The notes under the pieces are model-generated. The model worked only from the letters and a program-made list of their open reading frames with translations. It searched no databases and had not been told where the DNA came from. This document shows, one piece after another, positions 12,010 to 22,701 of a DNA stretch of 23,700 nucleotides (the stretch's first letter is position 1; the number at the start of each line of letters is the position of its first letter). The position numbers and the translations under genes were made by a program. Origin of the DNA: Trueperaceae bacterium (GTDB lineage: Bacteria; Deinococcota; Deinococci; Deinococcales; Trueperaceae); assembly GCA_040905465.1 (NCBI GenBank), contig JBBDRK010000057.1:1-23700 (forward strand), read 5' to 3'.

Positions 12010-12396
12010 TCACTCCTCGCTGACTTTGTCCGCCTCGTGCGCTGCAGCGTCGATCTTTACGTTGGCTCCCGCCCGGTGTATGACGAACCGGGATGCGGCC
12101 GTGCAGATTGCCTGGCACTCTCCGGCCGCCAGCGCACTGTAGACCTCGCTGCCTCGGTAGAAAGAGGCCAGGACGGCTCCCTCTGGCGCCGCATCGGTTA
12201 CCCGCCGGTCCTCGAAGACGAAGCCCAGCCCCTCCATGACCTTCACGATCCGGAGGGCATCGTCCCGGTCCTCCAGCGGCCTGAACTGCTCGACCCGGCC
12301 CCCGTCGTCGGTCTGCCAGCCGCCGCGAGTGCGGGTCCACCGCAGCAGATCAACGGTGAGAAGCTGTTCTAGATTCCTGTCCTGGGGGCGATTCAA
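12010..12396 (-). CDS. Hypothetical protein (about 128 aa), possibly phage ABA-sandwich/BC1872-like fold
   Basis: TTG at 12396 lies 5 nt after SD AGGAG, with a consensus promoter upstream. Pattern FRPLEDRDDALRIVKVM...ASF...QAICTAA. The ORF-track extension to 12810 is antisense to nfeD. Confidence 0.75.
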   Translation of the reverse strand: MNRPQDRNLEQLLTVDLLRWTRTRGGWQTDDGGRVEQFRPLEDRDDALRIVKVMEGLGFVFEDRRVTDAAPEGAVLASFYRGSEVYSALAAGECQAICTAASRFVIHRAGANVKIDAAAHEADKVSEE

Positions 12397-12423
12397 CAGC
12401 ACTCCTAACGGACGTCCGATTGA

Positions 12424-12432
12424 ATTATAGCA
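12424..12432 (-). promoter_or_regulatory. Consensus extended -10 TGcTATAAT for the 12396 gene
   Basis: + strand ATTATAGCA equals minus-strand TGCTATAAT, in an AT-rich patch of a GC-rich genome. Confidence 0.75.
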
Positions 12433-12453
12433 ATTCGGGCAGCCGCACGGGCG

Positions 12454-12462
12454 TGGTATTCT
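12454..12462 (+). promoter_or_regulatory. Extended -10 (TGgTATTCT) of a leaderless nfeD operon transcript
   Basis: Ends 6 nt before GTG 12469; no SD. Confidence 0.65.
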
Positions 12463-12468
12463 CGATTC

Positions 12469-13812
12469 GTGACGCGAACGTGCCTCGGCGCCGTTGTCGC
12501 CGTGCTGGCGACCATGGCACTCCTGTCGGCCGGCTCCGCCTTCGGCCAAGGCAACACTCGGGCCGTCTGGTTGATTCCGATCGATACCGACATCACCCCG
12601 GCTACCGCACAATTCGTGAGCTCGCGCGTGGAGCGCGCCAACGACGAACAGCCGCTGGCTCTGGTGTTCCTGATCGACACGCCGGGCGGTCAAGTGAGCG
12701 CCATGGAGAGCATCGTGGCGACGATCCTCAACGATGCCAGGCTGCCTACCATCGCCGTCGTCGAAAACGCGTTCAGTGCGGGAGCACTGATTGCGATGAG
12801 CGCGGAGCACCTGGCGATGCTGCCGGGATCTTCAATCGGCGCCGCGTTGCCGATCACCATTTCGCCTGTCGGCATCAATCCGGTCGGTGAGAAGATGAAC
12901 TCGGCCATGCGAGGCCAGTTCCGCTCGGTGGCCGAGGCGCGAGGTCGCAATGCCCGCGTTGCCGAGGCGATGGTAGATCAGCGGATCGAGATCCCCGGCC
13001 TGTCGACGAGTGAGGAGTTGCTGACGCTGACCGCTTCCCAGGCCGTCGAGCACGGTATTGCCGACCTGCAGGCGGCGAACATGCAGGATGCTTTGGAGAG
13101 TTTCGGTTACGGCGGAGTACGGATAGAGCGTATCGAACGGAATCTGAGCGAGCGCTTTGCGACGATGTTGGCCAACCCGGTAGTCGCGGCGATCCTGTTG
13201 GTGCTGGGAGTCGGGGGCATCCTGCTGGAGGCGTTCACGCCTGGATTCGGAATCCCCGGGGGAATCGGGATAGTGGCGCTGGCTCTGCTTGCCGCCGGTG
13301 CCTACATGGCGACCCCGGCCGGCACGTTCGATGTCCTGCTGATCATCGCAGGAGTGCTGCTGATCGCGCTCGAGGTGCTCGTGATCCCTGGTTTCGGGGT
13401 GGCCGGATTGCTGGGAATCGCCGCCATCGGAGTCGCCGTGTTCAGGATCTTCCAGGAGGACTTCCTCGCCATAGTCGGCTGGTCCGCTCTCTTCGGAAGC
13501 GTGCTCCTGGGCATGGCCCTGTGGCTGCTTCCAAACCTGCGGATTGCATCACCGCTGATGCTCGAGACGCGATTGGGCAGGCGGCCGGGCGGTGCGCCGG
13601 GCGATACCGGTGGAGTCGCGACCGGGCCGTATGATCACCTGTTGGGCCAGTCCGGCATAGCCGCCAGTGACCTGAGGCCGGCCGGCGTGGCCAAGGTGTC
13701 CGGCGAACGGGTCGACGTCGTAACGCAAGGAGATTTCGTGCCCGCCGGCAGGCCGATAGAGGTCTTCCGGGTCGAGGGAAACCGTATCGTAGTTCGAGAA
13801 CTCGAAGGCTGA
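12469..13812 (+). CDS. nfeD: Long-form NfeD (YqeZ-like): signal peptide, ClpP-like serine protease domain, membrane domain, OB-fold
   Basis: [39 protein letters not shown], two PGFG membrane motifs, and C-terminal DLRPAG...[11 protein letters not shown]...VEGNRIVVR. Confidence 0.92.
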
Positions 13813-13823
13813 AGGAGCCCCTA

Positions 13824-14801
13824 ATGTCCATAAGCATACTGATTGTCGCCGCTGCCGCCGTCATCTTCTTCATGATCCTGTTTACCGTGATCCCGGTGGG
13901 GCTGTGGATCTCGGCCGTCGCCGCCGGAGTGCGTGTGAGCCTCATATCGCTGGTGGCGATGCGACTCAGGCGCGTTCCGCCGAACCGGATCATTCTGCCG
14001 TTGATCAAGGCCGACAAGGCCGGAATCGACGTGGGGCAGAATCAACTCGAGGCCCACTTCCTCGCGGGGGGCAACGTCGACCGGGTCGTCGACGCGCTTA
14101 TCGCCGCAGACAAGGCACGGATTGCACTACCGTTCGACCGTGCCGCCGCTATCGACCTCGCCGGCCGTGACGTTCTCGACGCCGTCAAGGTGTCGGTTAA
14201 TCCGCGGGTAATCCAGACTCCGAACGTTTCGGCGGTCGCCAAGGATGGTATCGAACTCATCTCGACCGCTCGAGTGACCGTCAGGGCCAACCTGGAGCGG
14301 CTGGTCGGGGGCGCCGGTGAAGAAACCATCATCGCTCGCGTGGGCGAGGGCATCGTTTCCTCGATCGGCTCCACGTCCTCTCACAAAGGCGTCCTGGAAA
14401 ACCCCGACACCATCTCCAAGACCGTCCTGGCCAAGGGCCTCGATTCGGGTACCGCCTTCGAGATCCTGTCGATCGACATCGCCGACGTGAACGTCGGCCG
14501 CAACATCGGGGCCGAGCTCCAGACCGACCAGGCGGAGGCCGACAAGCGCGTTGCGCAGGCCAAGGCCGAGGAGCGCCGGGCGATGGCCGTGGCCGTCGAG
14601 CAGGAGAACCGGGCGCGAGTCGAGGAGATGCGGGCCAAGGTCGTCGAAGCCGAGGCAGAAGTGCCATTGGCGATCGCCGAGGCGTTCCGGGCAGGCAACC
14701 TCGGGGTAATGGACTACTACAATCTGCAGAACATCCAGTCGGATACCGATATGCGCGGTCACATCGCCAGAGCGACCCGCCCGGGTGATGACCAGGAATG
14801 A
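13824..14801 (+). CDS. floA: Flotillin-like protein FloA (YqfA, UPF0365)
   Basis: [75 protein letters not shown]. Confidence 0.95.
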
Positions 14802-15367
14802 GCTTCGACGCCCTGCTGTCCATCATTTTCATACTGTTTTTCGTGGTGGGCCCACTACTCAGGCGTTTCAGCGGCCGCGGCCAGTCGACCCGTCAACCCC
14901 CGCAGCGCCGTCCGCAAGCCGGCCAGGAAGCCCGACCGCCACGTGAGGCGACTGCCGAAGGCGAGGGCCCGCTGTCCCGGCGGCTCGAGGAGGCCAGACG
15001 GCGTGTGCAGGAGGCGATGGGTGACCAGGTGGAGCCGCATCTGGAGAGCAAGCGGTCTGCCGCCGACTCGCGCTCGACGGCCTCCACTCGCGAGCTCGAC
15101 TGGCAGGCCTCGGCAAAGGTCGTTCCGGCGTTTCTGACACCGACAGCTCGTCCGGCCAGCCGCCGCAAGGCCGACACCGCGGCGGAATCTGCGGCGTTGC
15201 GCAAAGACCGTTCCCGGGTCCGGCAGCCCGCTAAACTACGGCTCGGGCGCCGTCCGGCGTTGGATGACAACGGCATTCTCAACGGCGTCATCTGGCATGA
15301 GATCCTTAGCGAACCGGTGTCCAGAAGGGGAACCAGGAGGCAGCCATCGCGACTTCGGTCACGCTGA
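14798..15367 (+). CDS. YqfB-like single-pass membrane protein
   Basis: N-terminal TM helix, disordered basic middle, C-terminal [11 protein letters not shown] motif; third position of the nfeD-floA operon with ATGA overlap. Confidence 0.7.
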
Positions 15368-16275
15368 AACTTCGCAGTCCGGCGGAGGCGGTGACTCTGT
15401 TCGGGCAGAACGACGAGAACCTCAAACTGCTTCGCAACCGGCTTGGTGCCCGGGTGATAGCTCGCGGCGACGAGTTGCGCCTGTCCGGCGAGGAGAGTGA
15501 AGTCGCCGAGGCCGAGCGGACCTTTCGCTCGTTACTGTCGACGATCCGCCGCGGCGGCAAGTTGAGTCTGGTCGAACTCGAGCACAGCGACCTGACGACG
15601 TTGGACGAGCCGTCCAACGGTGCCGTGGACGAACCCCGCCTACCTCTTCGGGCGCGCCCGAAAACTGCCGGCCAGCGACGCTACGTCACCGAGATAGCCG
15701 GAAGCCCGATAGTCTTCGGTGTCGGTCCGGCCGGTACGGGCAAGACCTATCTGGCGGTTGCCATGGCGGTGCAGGCCCTGCTCGACAAACGTGTAAAGCG
15801 CATCGTCCTGACCCGGCCCGCGGTCGAAGCCGGCGAGAAGCTGGGGTTCTTGCCCGGCGACCTGCAGGCGAAGATAGATCCGTATCTCCGGCCTCTTTAC
15901 GACGCCCTCTACGATATGCTCCCGACCGACCGCTTCGAGCAACTGCTGGAACAAGGCATCATCGAGGTTGCGCCGTTGGCCTTCATGCGTGGCCGAACGC
16001 TGAACGACGCCTTCATCATCCTCGACGAGGCCCAGAACACGACACCCGAGCAGATGAAGATGTTTCTCACCCGGATGGGCTTCAACTCCAAGGTCGTCGT
16101 TACCGGCGATATGACTCAGACCGACCTGCCCGGCTCGATGCGCAGCGGGTTGTCGGTGGCCGAACGGATCCTGAAGGACATCGAGGGCATCGGTTTCGTC
16201 TACTTCACGGAAAGCGACGTGGTGCGCCACCCGCTGGTTGCGCGCATCATCAAGGCGTATGAGCAAGGCGGCTAG
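15346..16275 (+). CDS. phoH: PhoH-family ATPase (KH-like N-terminus), probable ATC start
   Basis: GPAGTGKTYLA, LTRPAVEAGEKLGFLPGD, FMRGRT, DEAQN, DVVRHPLV. The first canonical start is GTG 15391, but SD AGGAGG points to ATC 15346. Confidence 0.92.
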   Translation: MATSVTLKLRSPAEAVTLFGQNDENLKLLRNRLGARVIARGDELRLSGEESEVAEAERTFRSLLSTIRRGGKLSLVELEHSDLTTLDEPSNGAVDEPRLPLRARPKTAGQRRYVTEIAGSPIVFGVGPAGTGKTYLAVAMAVQALLDKRVKRIVLTRPAVEAGEKLGFLPGDLQAKIDPYLRPLYDALYDMLPTDRFEQLLEQGIIEVAPLAFMRGRTLNDAFIILDEAQNTTPEQMKMFLTRMGFNSKVVVTGDMTQTDLPGSMRSGLSVAERILKDIEGIGFVYFTESDVVRHPLVARIIKAYEQGG

Positions 16276-18229
16276 AAGGACCTTTCCTCGCCTGCTGGCC
16301 CTGTACGTGGTCAGTACGATCGGGCTGGCGGTGCTGCTTTACAGCGTTTACGGTCAGCGCCAGCGAGCACCGCTTCAGCCGGGTCAGCCGAGTCCACAGA
16401 CATATATTGCACCGGTGGACATCGACGTTATCGACCGGGTAGCTACCGAACGGCAGAGACAAGCGGCGCGAGCTCAGGTCGACACCATCTTCACCGGCGA
16501 TCCGCGACTCCAGCAACTGGTCCTCTCGTCGATCGCCACGACGGGGCTCCCGGAGGATGTCGAGGACCTGTTGGTGCGCGAGTACCGCGACCCGCAAGGC
16601 GTGACGGCCGCCGACCTCGAAGAGCTGCTCGAAGTTGCCGCTGCCCTCACACCCGAGCCCCGGCAACGTGAAGTGTCGCTGCTGCTCGAGAGGCGCCTGA
16701 TTCCGACGTCGGTGCCGAACGCGCGGCTCACCGAGGCGGCCCGTGACGCGGCCGCCGCCGCGATTCAACCGGTTCTCCAGTCGCTGCAGGCGGGACAGGC
16801 GATACTCCGCGAAGGCGATCTCATCTCCGAGGACCACTTGCGGGTCCTGCAGTCGGTGGGTCTTTACAGTCCGCGCTACGCCCAGCTGACGCAGGCGTTC
16901 TGGATAGCGCTCGGCTGTCTGGCGCTCTCTTCCCTGCTCAGCCTGCCGCTTTTCTTCGCCGAGCGGCGACTGCGGGGCAAACTTACGCTATCGCAACTCG
17001 GTTTTCTCATGACGCTCACTCTGCTGGTTCTCACCGCGCAGCGCCTGGCCCTTCTGGTGTCGCCTGCGTTCCTGTTCGTGATGCTGGTGCCGCTGCTCGT
17101 GTCGGTCCTGCTGTCGGACGAGACGGCCGTGATGTGGGCGGTATGGCTGGGGGTGGTGATGGCACTGCTGGTGCCCTCGGCGCCGCTCTACACCCTCGTC
17201 GCCACCATTGCCGGGGCCTTGGCGTCCAGTCTGCTGGCAACATCGCTACCGTCGCGAACATCGCTGTTGTTCGCCGGCGTGGTGGGAGGCGTGGTCAGCG
17301 CCGCTGGACTCGCCATCATGACCCTGGCTATCGGCGGTTACACACCCTGGGCCACGCTGATTTCAGCCGCGATCATGATCTTCGCCGGTATACTCGCGGG
17401 CGTCGTAGGACTCGGTCTCTTGCCCTTGGCCGAAAGCAGTTTCGGATTCGTCACCGAGTTTCGACTGGTCGAGCTGTCGAGCCCGACGACTCCGCTCCTG
17501 CAAAAGCTGCTGCTCGAAGCGCCCGGCTCGTACCAGCACAGCCTGATCATCTCGAACCTGGTCGAGCAGGCCGTAAAGAACATCGGCGGCAACTCCTTGC
17601 TGGCCAGGGTGGGGGCGCTCTACCACGATGTCGGCAAGCTCCGCAGGCCGCACTTCTATACCGAGAACCAGTTTACGGGCGAGAACCCGCACGACAAACT
17701 GAGTCCTCACCTGAGCTATCTGATTATCGTCTCGCATGTGCGTGATGGCGTCGAGCTGCTGCACGAATTCCGTATTCCAAGGGCGATCGAACCGTTCGTG
17801 AGCGAGCATCACGGAACCACCGTCATGACCTACTTCTACAAGCGGGCACTCGAGGACCAGACCGGCCTGGAGGAGTTGAACTTTCGTTACCCGGGACCAC
17901 GGCCCCGCACCAAGGAGACAGCTGTTCTCATGCTGGCCGACGCGGTTGAATCGGCATCGCGCTCGCTGGTCGAGCCGAGTCAGGGCAGCATTCGGGCGCT
18001 AATCGAGCGGCTCGTGGAGCAGCGCCTGCAGGACGGTCAGCTTGCCGAAAGCGCCCTCAACTTCCACGACATCGAGGTAATCAAGAACACGTTCGAGCGG
18101 ATGCTCACCGCCATCCTGCACAGGCGCGTCAGTTACCCCACCCCCGAAGAGATCCGCGGCGCGCGCAAGGGGGGAGGTGCCGCACGTGGTGGAGAGCCTA
18201 GACGAAACGAACCGCTTCCCGCACGTTGA
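16259..18229 (+). CDS. pgpH: 7TM-HD phosphohydrolase, PgpH/YqfF family (probable c-di-AMP phosphodiesterase)
   Basis: N-terminal TM, extracytoplasmic domain, multi-TM block, then APGSYQHS, YHDVGK, SHVRDG, EHHGT, FRYPGPRP and MLADAVE; sits between phoH and ybeY. Confidence 0.85.
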   Translation: MSKAARRTFPRLLALYVVSTIGLAVLLYSVYGQRQRAPLQPGQPSPQTYIAPVDIDVIDRVATERQRQAARAQVDTIFTGDPRLQQLVLSSIATTGLPEDVEDLLVREYRDPQGVTAADLEELLEVAAALTPEPRQREVSLLLERRLIPTSVPNARLTEAARDAAAAAIQPVLQSLQAGQAILREGDLISEDHLRVLQSVGLYSPRYAQLTQAFWIALGCLALSSLLSLPLFFAERRLRGKLTLSQLGFLMTLTLLVLTAQRLALLVSPAFLFVMLVPLLVSVLLSDETAVMWAVWLGVVMALLVPSAPLYTLVATIAGALASSLLATSLPSRTSLLFAGVVGGVVSAAGLAIMTLAIGGYTPWATLISAAIMIFAGILAGVVGLGLLPLAESSFGFVTEFRLVELSSPTTPLLQKLLLEAPGSYQHSLIISNLVEQAVKNIGGNSLLARVGALYHDVGKLRRPHFYTENQFTGENPHDKLSPHLSYLIIVSHVRDGVELLHEFRIPRAIEPFVSEHHGTTVMTYFYKRALEDQTGLEELNFRYPGPRPRTKETAVLMLADAVESASRSLVEPSQGSIRALIERLVEQRLQDGQLAESALNFHDIEVIKNTFERMLTAILHRRVSYPTPEEIRGARKGGGAARGGEPRRNEPLPAR

Positions 18230-18620
18230 GGTCCTCGACCGCACGATGAACGCACTCCTGGCAGAGTTGCAGCTCGACGATCGTGAAGTAACATTGGTTC
18301 TGGTGGACGATGACTCGATGCGCCGCCAGAACCACGAGCATCGCGGTGAGGACGCGCCTACCGACGTACTCTCCTATCCCACCGGCGAGCCAGACGATAG
18401 TGACATTCCCACCGTCGCCCACCTGGGCGATATCTTCATAAGTGTCGACACCGCCCAGCGGCAGGCGGCGGAACACGGCCACGACCTGCTTACAGAAACC
18501 CTGATATTGGCCGCTCACGGGCTGACGCACTTGCTCGGCTACGACCACCAGACGGAGGACTCATGGGACATCTTCCGGGAAACGCAACAGCGGATTCTCG
18601 CCCTCAAGCCGGCCTCTTGA
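18186..18620 (+). CDS. ybeY: rRNA maturation endoribonuclease YbeY
   Basis: PTDVLSY, LGDIFIS and the Zn motif HGLTHLLGYDH; GTG 18186 lies 8 nt after GGAGG. Confidence 0.93.
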   Translation: MVESLDETNRFPHVEVLDRTMNALLAELQLDDREVTLVLVDDDSMRRQNHEHRGEDAPTDVLSYPTGEPDDSDIPTVAHLGDIFISVDTAQRQAAEHGHDLLTETLILAAHGLTHLLGYDHQTEDSWDIFRETQQRILALKPAS

Positions 18621-18982
18621 GCGCCGCGGCCCGACTGCGACGCTCAGCCGGGTTCGCCTGGAGCGGTCTCGCTCACGCCTGGCGGGAACAGCCCAACTTC
18701 CGTCTGGAGCTTGCTATCGGCGCGAGTGCCGCGCTTATGGCGGTCTGGTTGGGAACCGGGCTGGTACCGGTCGTGTTGAGCGCCGCGTTGGTGATCTCGC
18801 TGGAATTGTTGAACAGCGCCGTGGAGGCCCTGGTGGACCTCGCGTCGCCGCAGCAGAACCCGTTGGCCCGGGCCGCCAAGGACATGTCCGCTGGCGCGGT
18901 ACTGGTGGCTTCATTGGCCGCCCTCGTCGTCGGCCTGCTGGCCCTGGGACCGGCGCTGCTACAGAGGCTCGGAGGAGCGTGA
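18617..18982 (+). CDS. dgkA: Diacylglycerol/undecaprenol kinase (DgkA family)
   Basis: FAWSGL, QPNFR, ELLNSAVEALVDL, AKDMSAGAVLV; TTGA overlap with ybeY. Confidence 0.9.
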   Translation: MSAAARLRRSAGFAWSGLAHAWREQPNFRLELAIGASAALMAVWLGTGLVPVVLSAALVISLELLNSAVEALVDLASPQQNPLARAAKDMSAGAVLVASLAALVVGLLALGPALLQRLGGA

Positions 18983-19389
18983 CTAGCGTTCCCGGTAGCG
19001 TCCCCGGTGATCTGCTCGAGGCCGCTCGGGCGGCCTTCGAGAACGCCTACGCACCCTATTCGCGCTTTCGGGTCGGTGCGGCGCTACGTGCGGCCGACGG
19101 CACCGTGATAAGCGGCGCGAACGTCGAGAATGCGTCTTTCGGCCTCTCCCGCTGCGCCGAGCAGAGCGCGGTCCAGGCGATGGCCACACTCGGCGAACGC
19201 GGATTCAGCGAGATCGTCGTCTACACCGAGAGCGACCCGCCGGCCAGTCCCTGCGGCGGTTGCCGTCAGGTGCTTGCGGAATTTTCACCGGAGGCGGCCG
19301 TGTACTTGGTAAATCATGCTGGAGAAGCGGTGACGACGACAGTCGGTAAGCTTCTCCCCGGGGCGTTCAGCCTGGAGCCGCCGGTGTAG
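18979..19389 (+). CDS. cdd: Cytidine deaminase (homotetrameric type)
   Basis: AYAPYSRFRVGAA, GANVENAS, CAEQSA, PCGGCRQVLAEF; SD GGAGGA and GTGA overlap. Confidence 0.95.
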   Translation: MTSVPGSVPGDLLEAARAAFENAYAPYSRFRVGAALRAADGTVISGANVENASFGLSRCAEQSAVQAMATLGERGFSEIVVYTESDPPASPCGGCRQVLAEFSPEAAVYLVNHAGEAVTTTVGKLLPGAFSLEPPV

Positions 19390-19437
19390 CTCGGCGGTGA
19401 CCCGGCATGCGCTTCAAGCTTCTCACGGGGCCGGCGT

Positions 19438-19443
19438 TATACT
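19438..19443 (+). promoter_or_regulatory. -10 TATACT of a leaderless TPR gene
   Basis: Ends 7 nt before ATG 19451; pyrimidine-rich spacer with no SD. Confidence 0.65.
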
Positions 19444-19450
19444 CCTCCAG

Positions 19451-21568
19451 ATGAAAAAGCTAGCTGGCCTACTATTCGCCCTCTTCGTCATCTTCGGGTC
19501 CGCGCTCGGTCAATCACAGGCGCCTCAGCGCGTGCTGGTGCTGCCGTTCGACTCGAGTCGCTCCTTCGAGCCTTACGGACTCGGCCTGGCTACCGGCCTG
19601 CAGCGCACACTCAACTCCCTGGACGGCGTATACGCTCCCGCGGTCGCCGAGGGTGGCCTGTACGTTACCCGCGCACACGAAGCAGGGCTGGACGCGATCG
19701 CCACGGCAGTCGCCGCCTTCGAAGCCGACCTGGTGGTGAGCGGCGGGGTGAACGGCTCCGGTTCACTGCTGGAAGTCACCGTCGTATTCAACGGACCCAT
19801 TCTTGCCGAAGCCGAGCAGATCCGATTGCAGCTCCCGAGCGATCCGGCACAAGCGGTCGAGGGCGTCATATTGGCGGTCATCCAGCGGTTGGGCCGCAAC
19901 GACAGCGCGTCACAGGCGACCGTCAGGAACCTGGCCGGCGAGACCCCCGAGTTGGCGAGCCTGTCGGCTGTGTCGCGGGCCTCCTCTCGACTCGGAACCA
20001 ATCTGGGTGAGATGACGGCGGCTGCCGGACTCAATCCGGAGTCGAGCTGGGTTCTGGCCGAACAGGCCCGCGCACTGGCGCTGGACGGACGCACCGAGCA
20101 TTCATTGGCTGCCGCGGTCGGTGCCGTTGCCGCCAACCCCGAGGATGCCGAAGCGGCGGCCGTCCTCGGCGTAGTTGCCGACGCCGCCGGCCAGGATGAG
20201 CAGGCGCGCGCGAGCTTCCAGAACGCCCTGGCACTAAACGCCCACCACGCGCTGGCGCTGACAGGCCTCGCTGGCCTTACCGAGGACCGAGCGGAGTCGA
20301 CCGATCTCCTGGAGCGGGCCGTCGCCGCCTCACCCAGGCAGGTAGAGGCCGTTCTGCGCCTGGCGGAGTTGGAAACCAGTCATCAACGAGCGCTTCAGCG
20401 GCTGCGTCGGGCGAGCTCCAATCTGCCGGAGTCGGTGGCCCTGCACAGAGCTTTCATCGAAAGAGCCGTGGCCGCTGGAGATCCGGCAGGAGCGCTCTCG
20501 TATCTGCGACAGGTTACGAGCCAAGTCATGTCTTCCTCACCGGCGCTCTACGCCCAAGCCACGGCGCTTCCCGATCAGTTGGCCGAGCAAGCCCTGAGCC
20601 TGGTGCGCGAGGGCCGGGAGAAGTACCCGGAAAGCAGCGGACTGCAACTGACGGAAGCGGAGTTGCTGAGAGAGGCGGGCCGCATCGATGAAGCGGTGAC
20701 GGTGCTCGAGGATCTGTACGAGCGGTTTCCGGAGAGCGTGGAGGTTGCCAACTCGCTGGCGGTCGCGCTCGCGAGCGACGGTGACGTCGAGAGGGCCCGT
20801 GAGGTATTCGCTGCGGCAGCCGACGACAGCCAGGTGGCGCAAATCAACCTGGGCCGTTTGCTGCTGCAGGCCGGTCAGGCGCGAGCAGCGATAGCTACTC
20901 TCGAGCCGCTGGTCGAGCAGAACCAGCGGGACGCCGAACTGTTCACGCTCTACGGGATCGCGTTGGGGCGCACGGGACGCATCGACGAGGCGCAGTCCGC
21001 GCTGTCGCGCGCCCTGGAGATCGATCCCGAGTCGCGGCCCGCCGCACGGGCACGCGACCTGCTCGAGCAACAGCGGCGTATCGTCGGAGACGACGCTATC
21101 GCGTTCGAAGGCGAGGCGGCCGCGGCCTTCGAGCAGGGTCTCTACGGCCTCGAGACCGAGTCTCCGTCGGAAGCGGCATCGTCGTTCGCTCGAGCTTTCG
21201 AGTTGAGCGACCACCCGTTGGCCGCCTTTTACCACGGCTATGCGCTCCACCGGGCCGGCAGGCCGCGCGACGCGATCTCGCCCTACCGACTAGCCCTGGA
21301 GGCGTATCCGCAGAGCGACACGGTGCTGAACAATCTCGGGTACGCTCAACTTCAGTTGGGCCGGCTCGATCTGGCGCTCGACCTGCTCCGCCGGGCCGTG
21401 GCCGCTAATTCGGAGAATCCAAATGCCCACGTCAATCTGGGACTGACTTTCTTCGGACTCGGCCGCTACGGCGAGGCACTCGAGTCATGGGAGCGGGCTG
21501 TGTCCCTCGACCCTGGCCTGCAGGACGACCTGGCGGATATTCGTAGACGCGCGGAGGACAGGCGCTGA
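19451..21568 (+). CDS. Exported tetratricopeptide-repeat protein with N-terminal TolB_N/CsgG-like alpha/beta domain
   Basis: Signal peptide MKKLAGLLFALFVIFGSALG-Q; RVLVLPF...ADLVVSG pattern; many TPRs such as VLNNLGYAQLQLGRLDLA and AHVNLGLTFFGLGRYGEA. Confidence 0.85.
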   Translation: MKKLAGLLFALFVIFGSALGQSQAPQRVLVLPFDSSRSFEPYGLGLATGLQRTLNSLDGVYAPAVAEGGLYVTRAHEAGLDAIATAVAAFEADLVVSGGVNGSGSLLEVTVVFNGPILAEAEQIRLQLPSDPAQAVEGVILAVIQRLGRNDSASQATVRNLAGETPELASLSAVSRASSRLGTNLGEMTAAAGLNPESSWVLAEQARALALDGRTEHSLAAAVGAVAANPEDAEAAAVLGVVADAAGQDEQARASFQNALALNAHHALALTGLAGLTEDRAESTDLLERAVAASPRQVEAVLRLAELETSHQRALQRLRRASSNLPESVALHRAFIERAVAAGDPAGALSYLRQVTSQVMSSSPALYAQATALPDQLAEQALSLVREGREKYPESSGLQLTEAELLREAGRIDEAVTVLEDLYERFPESVEVANSLAVALASDGDVERAREVFAAAADDSQVAQINLGRLLLQAGQARAAIATLEPLVEQNQRDAELFTLYGIALGRTGRIDEAQSALSRALEIDPESRPAARARDLLEQQRRIVGDDAIAFEGEAAAAFEQGLYGLETESPSEAASSFARAFELSDHPLAAFYHGYALHRAGRPRDAISPYRLALEAYPQSDTVLNNLGYAQLQLGRLDLALDLLRRAVAANSENPNAHVNLGLTFFGLGRYGEALESWERAVSLDPGLQDDLADIRRRAEDRR

Positions 21569-21629
21569 ACTCGCGCGGCCTCAGCCAATCCCCCGCCGGA
21601 CCAGCGACAGGAAAGCCTCGACCGTACGG

Positions 21630-21635
21630 TAAACT
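21630..21635 (+). promoter_or_regulatory. -10 TAAACT of a leaderless his operon transcript
   Basis: Ends 7 nt before ATG 21643; spacer CCCCTTC contains no SD. Confidence 0.6.
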
Positions 21636-21642
21636 CCCCTTC

Positions 21643-22701
21643 ATGAGTATCCGCGCGCGAATCCGCGAACTCGCACCTTACGACTTCGCGCCCCACGCGG
21701 AGGGCGTGAAACTCGACCAGAACGAATTGCCCGAGGATATCCCGGAGAGTTTGCGGGAGGAGTTGGTCGAGCGCGTCGGAAGCGTGGCCTTGAACCGTTA
21801 CCCGGACCTGACCGCGAGCGAGCTGCGAACTCGGCTTGCCGAACTCCACGGGTGGCCGGTCGACGGCGTTATCGTTACCCCCGGCTCGAACGTACTCATC
21901 CAGTGCCTGGTCATCGCCGCCGGGATAGAGCAGCGCGTTATCGTTCCTTCCCCTTCCTTCGGGGTCTACCGGCTGCAGGCTCGAATGCTCGGGGCCGAGC
22001 TGAACGAGGTACCGATGTCCGCCGGCTTCGGTCTGCCGGTAAGGAGCATGCTGCGGGAGATGGAACGAGGACGAGGGGTGGTCTTCATAGCGAACCCTGC
22101 GGCCCCGACCGGGAACCTGCATCCACGCAGCGAGCTGGAGGCGTTGATCGCGGCCGCCGATGACCGCTGGACGATCGTGATAGACGAGGCATATCATCAA
22201 TTCGCCGGCAGCGACTTCCTGGAACTCGCGCAAAACCCGTCGGTCGTCTCGCTGCGCACGCTCTCCAAGGCGTTTGGCCTCGCGGGCGCCCGGGTGGGCT
22301 ACGCACTTACCTCCCCCGAGTTGGCCGAGGAACTTCGCAAGACCGTGAACCCGTTCGCGGTATCGGTGTTGCAGCAAGCAGCAGCGCTTACGATGCTCGA
22401 CCATCAGGACCTCGTGCTCGCCCGAGCGCGCGAGGTGGCGGTCGAGCGCGACTGGTTGTTCGACAGGCTTCTCGAGCTCCCCGATGTGTCGCCGTTCCCG
22501 TCTGTCGCGAACTTCATACTGCTGCGGCTGACGGACGGCCCTCGAGCGCACCGTGAGCTGTTGCGACGGGGCGTGATAGTTCGGCGCCAGGACGGCGGCA
22601 TGCTGACGAACTGCCTGCGTGTTTCGGTAGGCACCAGAGCGGAAAACCGGCGTTTTCTCGATGAGCTGCGGCAGGTAGTGGCGGAGGTTGGAAATGGCTA
22701 G
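21643..22701 (+). CDS. hisC: Histidinol-phosphate aminotransferase
   Basis: KLDQNE, NRYPD, NP..PTG, IDEAY and PLP-Lys motif RTLSKAFGLAGARVGY; upstream of hisB and hisH. Confidence 0.93.
   Translation: MSIRARIRELAPYDFAPHAEGVKLDQNELPEDIPESLREELVERVGSVALNRYPDLTASELRTRLAELHGWPVDGVIVTPGSNVLIQCLVIAAGIEQRVIVPSPSFGVYRLQARMLGAELNEVPMSAGFGLPVRSMLREMERGRGVVFIANPAAPTGNLHPRSELEALIAAADDRWTIVIDEAYHQFAGSDFLELAQNPSVVSLRTLSKAFGLAGARVGYALTSPELAEELRKTVNPFAVSVLQQAAALTMLDHQDLVLARAREVAVERDWLFDRLLELPDVSPFPSVANFILLRLTDGPRAHRELLRRGVIVRRQDGGMLTNCLRVSVGTRAENRRFLDELRQVVAEVGNG

Follow-up and report, generated by a model that had tools for sequence, protein, structure and literature searches.

In Escherichia coli, AUC, AUA and AUU are reported to initiate translation at 1-2% of the level of AUG, and an N-terminal methionine has been confirmed for AUC (bioRxiv 10.1101/063800). 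In Staphylococcus aureus the same three codons are described as reaching ~10% of AUG when they are preceded by extended Shine-Dalgarno sequences (PMC13009471). Closer to the genome considered here, Deinococcus has been reported to use ATC for dnaA and CTG for rpsL and folK (Baudet et al. 2010, PMC2830850), the dnaA start having been established by N-terminal proteomics, and the same paper mentions a proposed ATA start for infC of Deinococcus and Thermus. Deinococcus-Thermus is thus known to use non-canonical starts, to which the phoH gene of the Trueperaceae adds a further case. The main text of PMC2830850 contains no occurrence of phoH, and literature searches on a non-canonical start or IF3 dependence of phoH, on YbeY/YbeZ and the initiation codon, and on start codons in Truepera returned no report of an ATC, ATA or ATT (hereafter ATH) start for this gene.

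The window analysed, that is, the whole stretch of DNA under study, comprises 23,700 nucleotides (positions 1-23,700 of the forward strand of contig JBBDRK010000057.1) of Trueperaceae bacterium GCA_040905465.1, whose draft assembly consists of 81 contigs. The following features define the 5' end of phoH in this window.

15307..15309, + strand: in-frame TAG bounding the phoH reading frame on its 5' side, 39 nt before ATC 15346
15335..15340, + strand: Shine-Dalgarno sequence AGGAGG, ending 5 nt before the phoH ATC
15346..15348, + strand: ATC at which phoH is proposed to initiate, with fMet; ATH in 120/120 family loci, with codon periodicity from the next codon
15346..16275, + strand: phoH (ybeZ-type) gene, 309 codons plus TAG, with a PF02562 match; homology in relatives extends to residue 1
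15364..15366, + strand: CTG, in frame, overlapping the TGA of the upstream ORF as CTGA; rejected as conserved start
15391..15393, + strand: GTG, first canonical in-frame codon, from which the mechanical ORF call begins; rejected as conserved start

The spacer between AGGAGG and ATC is CAGCC, and the codon listing of the window contains no ATG, GTG or TTG in the phoH frame between 15310 and 15390. Translation from ATC 15346 would yield (M)[25 protein letters not shown]..., a protein of 309 residues that opens with (M)ATSVTLK. A sequence-only reading of this DNA had drawn attention to the perfect Shine-Dalgarno sequence 5 nt before an in-frame ATC, and to the TAG that leaves no canonical codon before GTG 15391; both observations are exact. 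The product is a PhoH protein: PF02562 matches residues 104-306 with E=1.2e-97 (325.8 bits vs a cut-off of 27), the ATPase domain is present with its P-loop, and G127-K133 is invariant in 46 sequences. The only solved-structure match, 3B85, covers the same residues 104-306 (E=1.7e-86) and is without the N-domain. None of the 27 database PhoH predictions viewed starts at the ATH codon; these proteins, 290-349 aa long and drawn from a search limited to 169-541 residues, are either shortened by 3-18 residues or extended with residues encoded by the Shine-Dalgarno sequence.

The start region was compared across 120 phoH loci from 119 Trueperaceae genomes representing 34 genera, single-contig assemblies included. 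The codon aligned with ATC 15346 is ATC in 84 loci, ATA in 21 and ATT in 15, and in none of the 120 is it ATG, GTG or TTG, although the loci come from kin genomes and such counts overstate their independence. At least eight switches among ATC, ATA and ATT have taken place within genera, and none to ATG. With C, A and T replacing one another at the third base, and G never turning up there, an efficient ATG appears to be selected against at this position. The draft state of the source genome, with its 81 contigs, might have pointed to an assembly or sequencing error, or to a private mutation of an ATG. However, the same class of codon occupies this position in 119 genomes, including those assembled as single contigs; the comparative data refute this explanation and leave its probability practically nil.

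Because a conserved internal isoleucine codon would also show AT followed by any base except G, the argument for a start rests on the upstream stops, the Shine-Dalgarno sequence and the onset of codon periodicity. Of the 120 loci, 91 have GGAGG exactly 5 nt before ATH, and 119 have GGAG(G) at a distance of 4-10 nt. The association of a Shine-Dalgarno sequence with ATC in the window is more than chance, since the same layout recurs in all 120 loci. An upstream in-frame stop with no canonical codon between it and ATH is present in 66/120 loci, in some of which a TAG stands merely 3 codons before ATH, while the first canonical codon downstream may come as early as codon 5 or later than codon 50. 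In 53 non-redundant loci, the entropies at positions 1, 2 and 3 of codons 2-16 are 0.83, 0.56 and 1.58, respectively, and those of the 5-nt spacer are 1.6-1.95: protein-coding constraint starts at codon 2, directly after ATH. These comparisons strongly support ATC 15346 as the start of phoH. The sequence-only reading had proposed this very start, and had regarded ATG in relatives, or initiation at GTG 15391 or CTG 15364, as findings that would speak against it. The proposal stands: ATG is absent from the aligned position, and neither of the two downstream codons is conserved as a start.

Translation from GTG 15391 would produce a 294-aa protein devoid of the first 15 residues. This codon is the first canonical one in the frame and has a GGAGG (15384-15388) just upstream, but only CG, 2 nt, separates the two, a spacing that speaks against it. 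Moreover, the aligned codon is GTG in 1/119 loci and canonical in 35/119, being mostly a non-start codon; the 15 residues preceding it show protein-level conservation along with synonymous variation; and PhoH proteins of other phyla begin with an ATG ~14-18 residues before the LFG motif, which is about the distance of ATH from that motif here. As the phoH start, GTG 15391 is highly improbable, although it could give rise to a minor truncated PhoH product in the source genome. I consider CTG 15364 an equally poor candidate. It is a table-11 start that overlaps the upstream TGA in an arrangement (CTGA) reminiscent of ATGA-type coupling, and rpsL has a CTG start both in the Deinococcus-Thermus phylum, according to PMC2830850, and in the source genome. 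Yet there is no Shine-Dalgarno sequence within 23 nt of this CTG, residues 2-6, encoded upstream of it, show the conservation of coding sequence, and the aligned codon is CTG in 63, TTG in 9, ATA in 4 and a non-start leucine or valine codon (CTC, CTA, TTA, CTT or GTA) in 42 of 118 loci.

The phoH start is embedded in a series of closely packed genes.

12469..13812, + strand: nfeD, upstream gene of the same tightly packed unit as phoH
13824..14801, + strand: floA, upstream of phoH in the same unit, with an ATGA overlap with the small ORF
14798..15367, + strand: small membrane ORF, tentatively YqfB-like, carrying WHEILSEP as a C-terminal motif; stops at TGA 15365-15367, 19 nt beyond the A of ATC
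16259..18229, + strand: pgpH-type 7TM-HD gene, likely from ATG 16259 with a 17-nt overlap with the phoH 3' end; TTG 16238 is also in frame
18186..18620, + strand: ybeY, from GTG 18186 or from 18177/18189; has a GGAGG of its own (18173-18177) and overlaps the 3' end of pgpH
18563..18982, + strand: dgkA, with its own GGAGG 4 nt upstream
18979..19389, + strand: cdd, with a GTGA overlap with dgkA

The order from phoH onwards is phoH, 7TM-HD, ybeY, dgkA, cdd, and phoH is syntenic with ybeY. The small membrane ORF has no Pfam or NCBIfam match. An ORF with the WHEILSEP motif is found upstream of phoH in 98 of the 120 loci, and its stop falls at +1 to +22 relative to ATH in 86 of these 98 and 27-112 nt before ATH in 8. 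In the window, the small ORF and phoH overlap by 22 nt, and this overlap contains two rare codons, AGG AGG. Such an overlap could be taken to mean that ATH encodes an internal isoleucine of a longer PhoH, made either from an upstream start or, by -1 frameshifting, as a fusion with the YqfB-like protein, all the more as 49/120 loci have an in-frame canonical codon upstream of ATH (mostly 9 or 17-18 codons away, inside the upstream ORF). However, in-frame stops occur 3-4 codons before ATH in several loci (e.g. TAG GAG GAA GAG ATA), and the spacer displays no amino-acid conservation. A fusion is further contradicted by the 8 loci in which the upstream ORF ends well before ATH, by the absence of a slippery heptamer X XXY YYZ in 15310-15367, and by the 27 PhoH predictions viewed (search range 169-541 residues), none of which has a transmembrane N-terminus. 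An internal isoleucine is thus even less probable than a start at GTG 15391 or CTG 15364; in the 49 loci with an upstream canonical codon, a longer PhoH form is formally conceivable.

At the other end of phoH, 15 of 19 family loci have a pgpH ATG within phoH itself, 5-20 nt ahead of its stop codon. Since the 3' end of the upstream ORF usually contains the phoH start, and since pgpH overlaps the 3' end of phoH, translational coupling is likely across both junctions. The sequence-only reading had supposed that the gene overlaps downstream pass on the effect of the phoH start. The overlaps do exist, and that between phoH and pgpH is kept in the 15 loci just mentioned, but ybeY and dgkA each have a GGAGG of their own.

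A leader or riboswitch at the phoH start was considered and dropped: RNAalifold gave no consensus structure around the start for 58 non-redundant sequences, and Rfam had no match at E<=1 in 14700-15600. Folding around the start had a mean z of +0.36 vs mononucleotide shuffles (30 of the 58 sequences). A search of 12300-19500 for sigma-70-like promoters returned no site, a scan that is uninformative for the Deinococcota phylum.

Other genes of the family also start with ATH. In mutM/fpg, ATC directly precedes PELPEV in 21/25 family loci, and here the position of the start is fixed by the catalytic N-terminal proline; mutM provides an internal control that ATC does initiate in the Trueperaceae lineage. 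The infC start is ATA or ATC in 14/14 family loci, and that of rsmB, a 16S rRNA methyltransferase gene, is ATH in 6/21. A genome-wide scan of GGAGG-led 5'-most starts in the source genome, using a GC3 coding filter, found 232 canonical vs 6 ATH candidates, with no enrichment of ATC over other codons; of these six, phoH, mutM and rsmB are backed by homology and three are doubtful. Given these numbers, ATH starts are rare (~1%) and do not reflect a general relaxation of start-codon choice. Unlike its Deinococcus counterpart, dnaA has ATG and GTG codons available as ordinary starts in the source genome. Loss of the three G:C pairs of the initiator tRNA was examined as a cause of ATH tolerance and rejected, as 5/5 complete family genomes carry the canonical anticodon stem-loop motif; the motif sits in a tRNA-Met in 4/5 of the loci fetched from these genomes. 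The source assembly itself contains no assembled initiator tRNA.

The reading I favour, with a probability of roughly 0.88, is that phoH is translated from ATC 15346, and that this near-cognate start is fixed and selected family-wide and likely lowers the synthesis of PhoH and PgpH. The position and the conservation of the phoH start, of its Shine-Dalgarno sequence and of the overlaps are established by the aligned genomes themselves; the functional steps that follow draw on analogy. AGGAGG would position the ribosome on the ATC 5 nt downstream, where initiator tRNA would read this codon as fMet, aided by the strength of the Shine-Dalgarno sequence and probably by ribosomes that reach the stop of the overlapping upstream ORF. 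The near-cognate start would be a fixed, selected trait of the whole Trueperaceae family. Judging from efficiencies measured in other organisms, PhoH synthesis is likely ~10- to 100-fold below that of the upstream nfeD-floA-yqfB-like genes, and PgpH synthesis would be lowered likewise through the conserved overlap at the phoH 3' end. The ATH start thus probably keeps PhoH scarce. Given that infC in Trueperaceae also keeps ATA or ATC, IF3 probably discriminates against the phoH start.

An extension of the favoured reading rather than a replacement for it, and one that goes back to the sequence-only reading, is that the ATH start is a dynamic sensor of IF3 activity or 30S maturity and that PhoH, PgpH and perhaps YbeY would feed back on ribosome maturation. 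Several observations are compatible with this idea. The ATA or ATC start of infC in 14/14 family loci suggests that IF3-type discrimination of ATH is active, rsmB shares the ATH start in 6/21 loci, and the phoH/pgpH overlap is conserved; in E. coli, 30S assembly mutants (rbfA, ksgA) are reported to raise initiation at near- and non-cognate codons (PMC6868393), and YbeZ is described as binding YbeY (PMC5101352). On the other hand, mutM is a DNA repair gene, which means that use of the codon extends beyond ribosome genes, and, with both mutM and rsmB using ATH in Trueperaceae, a feedback through ybeY is weakened as a story specific to phoH. In addition, ybeY, having its own GGAGG, need not depend on phoH translation, and neither a conserved RNA structure nor a known RNA family was found around the phoH start. 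Finally, 30S subunits of a ybeY mutant are reported to carry more IF3 (PMC5101352), from which one would expect ATH initiation to fall rather than rise, and which makes the direction of any YbeY loop uncertain. The passages of the literature on YbeY/YbeZ and 30S assembly that were consulted describe no effect of PhoH on initiation fidelity. A sensor function is therefore unlikely. Quite unlikely, too, is a broader version, in which Trueperaceae, and perhaps a second Deinococcales family, would keep a small IF3- or 30S-maturity-responsive set of ATH genes (infC, phoH with the coupled pgpH, rsmB and mutM), the never-ATG start of phoH/ybeZ matching the YbeZ-YbeY module of 16S 3'-end maturation to ribosome quality in the initiating pool. 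Should this set respond to IF3, ribosome-maturation factors and initiation fidelity would be connected through it.

Gene finders miss the ATH start, and taking it into account would correct the N-terminus of PhoH in more than 100 public genomes. With it, the record of non-canonical starts in Deinococcus-Thermus grows by new genes and now covers a third family, and phoH offers a clean natural example of the apparent exclusion of an efficient ATG over long divergence.

The AUU start of E. coli pcnB is conserved more narrowly than the phoH start. There, a low-abundance enzyme is held down by a near-cognate start, as would be the case here, in a gene unrelated to phoH (cited in 10.1101/063800 and PMC2830850). 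The S. aureus genes ccpN (AUA), cvfC1 (AUU) and citZ (AUA), as described in PMC13009471, resemble phoH more closely in combining a conserved AUH with a conserved strong Shine-Dalgarno sequence at a fixed spacer, an arrangement read as attenuation; their starts were mapped by Ribo-Ret and tested with reporters, in which they gave ~10% of AUG, whereas the phoH start is known by comparison and falls within the 3' part of an upstream ORF. Deinococcus dnaA, rpsL and folK belong to the same phylum, and, as with phoH, their annotated N-termini are heterogeneous and become uniform once a non-canonical start is taken, the ATC being read as methionine; N-terminal proteomics supports the dnaA start, that of phoH being deduced from sequence comparison. 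In infC (AUU/AUA), whose autoregulation by IF3 is known from E. coli, the product of the gene itself judges the start codon and closes a loop, while no influence of PhoH on the choice of start codon is known; what infC and phoH have in common is a Shine-Dalgarno-led AUH start that is conserved over long divergence and presumably discriminated by IF3.

The probable start of phoH (ybeZ-type) had been placed by a sequence-only reading at the non-canonical codon ATC 15346, and the description on which this rested, namely the Shine-Dalgarno sequence (SD), the ATC itself, the TAG at 15307 and the GTG at 15391, proved exact when the window was read again. The elements of the start region are as follows:

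15307, + strand: in-frame TAG upstream of the phoH start, read from the sequence
15335-15340, + strand: SD AGGAGG, followed by a 5-nt spacer (CAGCC) and ATC 15346
15364, + strand: CTG in the phoH frame, overlapping the TGA (15365-15367) of the upstream ORF
15391, + strand: GTG, with GGAGG at 15384-15388, a spacing of 2 bases

In the window sequence, the first ATG, GTG or TTG of the phoH frame after TAG 15307 is GTG 15391. Translation from ATC 15346 yields 309 residues, of which residues 104-306 form the PhoH ATPase domain (PF02562, E=1.2e-97), the same span being matched by the solved structure 3B85. The source assembly (family Trueperaceae, order Deinococcales), a 95% complete draft, consists of 81 contigs and has 65% G+C.

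The 5' regions of phoH were compared at 120 loci, drawn from 119 genomes that represent 34 genera of Trueperaceae; 20 of the loci came from the homology search and 100 from fetched regions. A phoH match was found in 126 of the 128 genomes searched; seven matching genomes are left out of the count (one unpublished, one with the N-terminus off the contig end, five with no N-terminal row listed). In two of the fetched regions (L182 and L224), where automatic extrapolation missed the position by a few codons, the ATH codon (ATC, ATA or ATT) was placed by eye beside the SD. This alignment of relatives, the check that the sequence-only reading had proposed, shows that SD and ATH are both conserved: at the position aligned with 15346, 84 loci carry ATC, 21 ATA and 15 ATT, and none of the 120 has ATG, GTG or TTG. 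A GGAG(G) core lies 4-10 nt before ATH in 119/120 loci, and GGAGG lies exactly 5 nt before it in 91. At 66 loci the frame can be seen to be closed upstream by a stop codon, and no canonical start intervenes before ATH; at several loci the stop is only three codons before ATH, within the SD (TAG GAG GAA GAG ATA). An upstream in-frame canonical codon is present in 49 loci, mostly 9 or 17-18 codons before ATH and inside the preceding ORF, while in the remaining 5 the frame is open as far as the fetched sequence extends.

Over codons 2-16 of 53 non-redundant loci, the entropies at the three codon positions are 0.83/0.56/1.58, a clear coding signature that sets in at the codon directly after ATH, and the five spacer bases before ATH are nearly unconstrained (1.6-1.95). 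Homology to Trueperaceae relatives extends to residue 1 of the ATC-started protein, and in other phyla the PhoH start codon, an ATG or sometimes a TTG, precedes the conserved LFG motif by about 14-18 residues, which is the distance of the ATC in the window. Downstream of ATH, the first canonical codon occurs anywhere between codons 5 and 45, and 8 loci have none within 50 codons. Initiation at GTG 15391 or CTG 15364 was considered, and neither is conserved among the 118-119 aligned loci: the codon aligned with the former is GTG in 1/119 loci, that of the source genome itself, and canonical in 35/119, and the codon aligned with the latter is a non-start Leu or Val codon in 42/118. Taken together, the comparative evidence indicates with high confidence that phoH starts at the ATH codon, and the proposed start at ATC 15346 is strongly supported by the ATH in 120/120 loci, the SD, the upstream stops and the periodicity. 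Public phoH protein predictions have heterogeneous N-termini, none of the 27 viewed beginning at ATH. One locus, L204 (G122:C12:81708-82628), is possibly a pseudogene: its phoH match contains one TGA and two TAG in frame, and SD and ATT are kept.

Changes in the third base of the start codon have been recurrent: two different ATH codons coexist within each of at least 8 genera, and another 7 genera are uniformly ATA or uniformly ATT, counts that overstate independence, the genomes being kin. No change has led to G, even though this base is the most frequent one at the third position of neighbouring codons. The same pattern would arise from a conserved internal Ile codon, and selection for a weak start can therefore be argued only through the separate evidence that ATH is the start.

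Outside the family, start codons vary. In 3/4 Deinococcus loci, phoH has TTG after GGAGA and is extended at the N-terminus by about 20 residues; the Thermaceae-like family f3 uses ATG or GTG and family f4 TTG or ATG. In f5, a further family of the order Deinococcales, one genus has TTG and one ATG, and in three genera most loci (L298-L301, L303, L306, L314, L035) have no ATG, GTG or TTG before LFG. Among these, L301 reads GGAGG, 5 nt, then ATT. One f5 group has AAGGA then ATC, with one member reading ACC there, so that the start in this group may be ATC, ACG or another codon. Weak or non-canonical phoH starts may thus predate the Trueperaceae. Two other variants were seen. In L037, L048 and L052 (Ruminococcus-type), the codon that is TTG or ATG in close relatives reads TTA, TTT or GTT, with conserved residues directly after the odd codon and the nearest canonical starts further upstream. 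In G005, G017, G019, G025, G032, G057, G153 and other genomes (including L309:160-2163, - strand), several hundred codons are inserted in frame into phoH after about residue 218, following MRGRT; those in G032 include a LAGLIDADG_3 domain (E=5.8e-9), so the insertion looks like an intein.

phoH lies in a tightly packed unit, in the order nfeD, floA, a small membrane ORF, phoH, a 7TM-HD pgpH-type gene, ybeY, dgkA and cdd, whose first members are:

12469-13812: nfeD
13824-14801: floA
14798-15367: small membrane ORF, between floA and phoH

floA and the small ORF share an ATGA overlap, and the small ORF overlaps phoH by 22 nt. Further on, the overlaps are 17 nt for phoH/pgpH (provided that pgpH starts at ATG 16259), about 44 nt for pgpH/ybeY and 58 nt for ybeY/dgkA, both ybeY and dgkA having GGAGG sites of their own, and dgkA/cdd share a GTGA. 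The small ORF encodes an N-terminal membrane helix and a C-terminal motif, G(I/V)(I/V)WHEIL(S)EP, that is conserved across the order (WHEILSEP in the window). It has no match in Pfam or NCBIfam; the only lead to its identity is YqfB (PF27722), from a look-alike search of the Atlas, which would fit the Bacillus-like order nfeD-floA-yqfB. An ORF with this motif lies within 240 nt upstream of phoH in 98/120 loci. Its stop falls at +1 to +22 from the A of ATH in 86 of the 98, 2-12 nt upstream of ATH in 4 and 27-112 nt upstream in 8; at ATA loci the sequence ATAGCG makes its TAG stop overlap the phoH start in an ATGA-like manner. The position of this stop at or near ATH makes translational coupling of phoH by terminating ribosomes plausible, though not obligatory. 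Likewise, in 15/19 family loci an ATG for pgpH precedes the phoH stop by 5-20 nt, usually within the KAYEQ codons, which makes it probable that PgpH synthesis is coupled to that of PhoH. No conserved RNA structure and no Rfam family were found around the phoH start.

On these sequence grounds, the ATH start most likely serves as a fixed attenuator, in which a perfect SD, together with coupling, would rescue initiation at a weak codon; the attenuation would keep PhoH, and PgpH with it, well below the genes of the upstream flotillin module. In E. coli, AUA, AUC and AUU give 1-2% of AUG, and N-terminal Met was found from AUC (Hecht et al., bioRxiv 10.1101/063800); in S. aureus, conserved AUA/AUU starts that have extended SDs were located in a 2026 study and give about 10% of AUG (PMC13009471). 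The phoH start is probably IF3-sensitive; IF3 in excess is inhibitory both to initiation at non-canonical codons and to re-initiation in the absence of an SD (PMC2268962). A fidelity feedback involving ybeY, as the sequence-only reading suggested, is a speculative possibility and would not be specific to phoH. In published work, 30S assembly mutants show more mis-initiation (PMC6868393), YbeY is bound by YbeZ, and increased IF3 on 30S subunits is reported for a ybeY mutant (both PMC5101352). Literature searches on phoH non-canonical starts and IF3, on YbeY/YbeZ and the initiation codon and on Truepera start codons yielded no report of an ATH phoH start. The main use of the phoH start assignment is as an annotation correction and a clean comparative example.

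An ATH start is not special to phoH. When the source genome was scanned, under a coding filter, for 5'-most starts preceded by GGAGG, 232 canonical starts emerged versus 6 ATH candidates; ATH starts are rare (roughly 1% of the starts with a strong SD) yet recurrent in Trueperaceae. The genes with non-canonical starts discussed here are:

C43:104323-105213 (L114:301-1191), + strand: mutM/fpg (relatives L231-L260)
C57:44812-46182 (L118:301-1671), outside the window: rsmB, with NusB and RsmB/F domains (relatives L261-L290)
L122, on contig C56: infC (relatives L332-L360)
L125, on contig C15: rpsL, CTG before PTVNQLLRKG, AAGGAG 9 nt upstream

In mutM/fpg, the ATC sits within the 3' end of the preceding gene and is followed by CCC GAA CTG CCT GAG GTC, giving (M)PELPEV. 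The catalytic nucleophile of the Fpg family is the N-terminal proline left after Met removal, and the start therefore cannot be elsewhere than at this ATC, which is conserved in 21/25 Trueperaceae loci (ATG in 3, GTG in 1; ATG in 5/5 outgroup loci). rsmB probably starts at ATC behind GGAGG, the aligned codon being ATH in 6/21 family loci with an N-terminal match and ATG or TTG in several other genera. A CTG of another kind occurs in the window, in a class I/II aminotransferase gene (21565-22701), where CTG 21565, with GGAGG 7 nt upstream, lies 26 codons before the in-frame ATG 21643; because the Pfam match begins at residue 47 of the CTG form, the ATG is sufficient and the CTG with its GGAGG is probably there by chance. 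The three-G:C-pair motif of initiator tRNA was found in 5/5 complete Trueperaceae genomes, inside tRNA-Met in 4/5 loci fetched; the draft source genome has, among 38 tRNAs, one with a CAT anticodon, of elongator or Ile-type look, and its initiator tRNA gene appears not to have been assembled.

In Deinococcus, N-terminal proteomics placed the dnaA start at ATC, and CTG was proposed for rpsL and folK and ATA for infC (Baudet et al. 2010, PMC2830850, the main text of which does not mention phoH). In contrast to Deinococcus dnaA, that of the source genome has ordinary start options. infC of Trueperaceae, behind GGAGGTG, has ATA in 13 and ATC in 1 of 14 family loci; TAA directly precedes ATA in two outgroup loci, and f5 has GTA at the aligned position, preceded at two codons' distance by an ATG that lies very near the SD. 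The Trueperaceae ATA agrees with that proposed for infC of Deinococcus and Thermus, as the rpsL CTG does with the CTG start reported in Deinococcus-Thermus.
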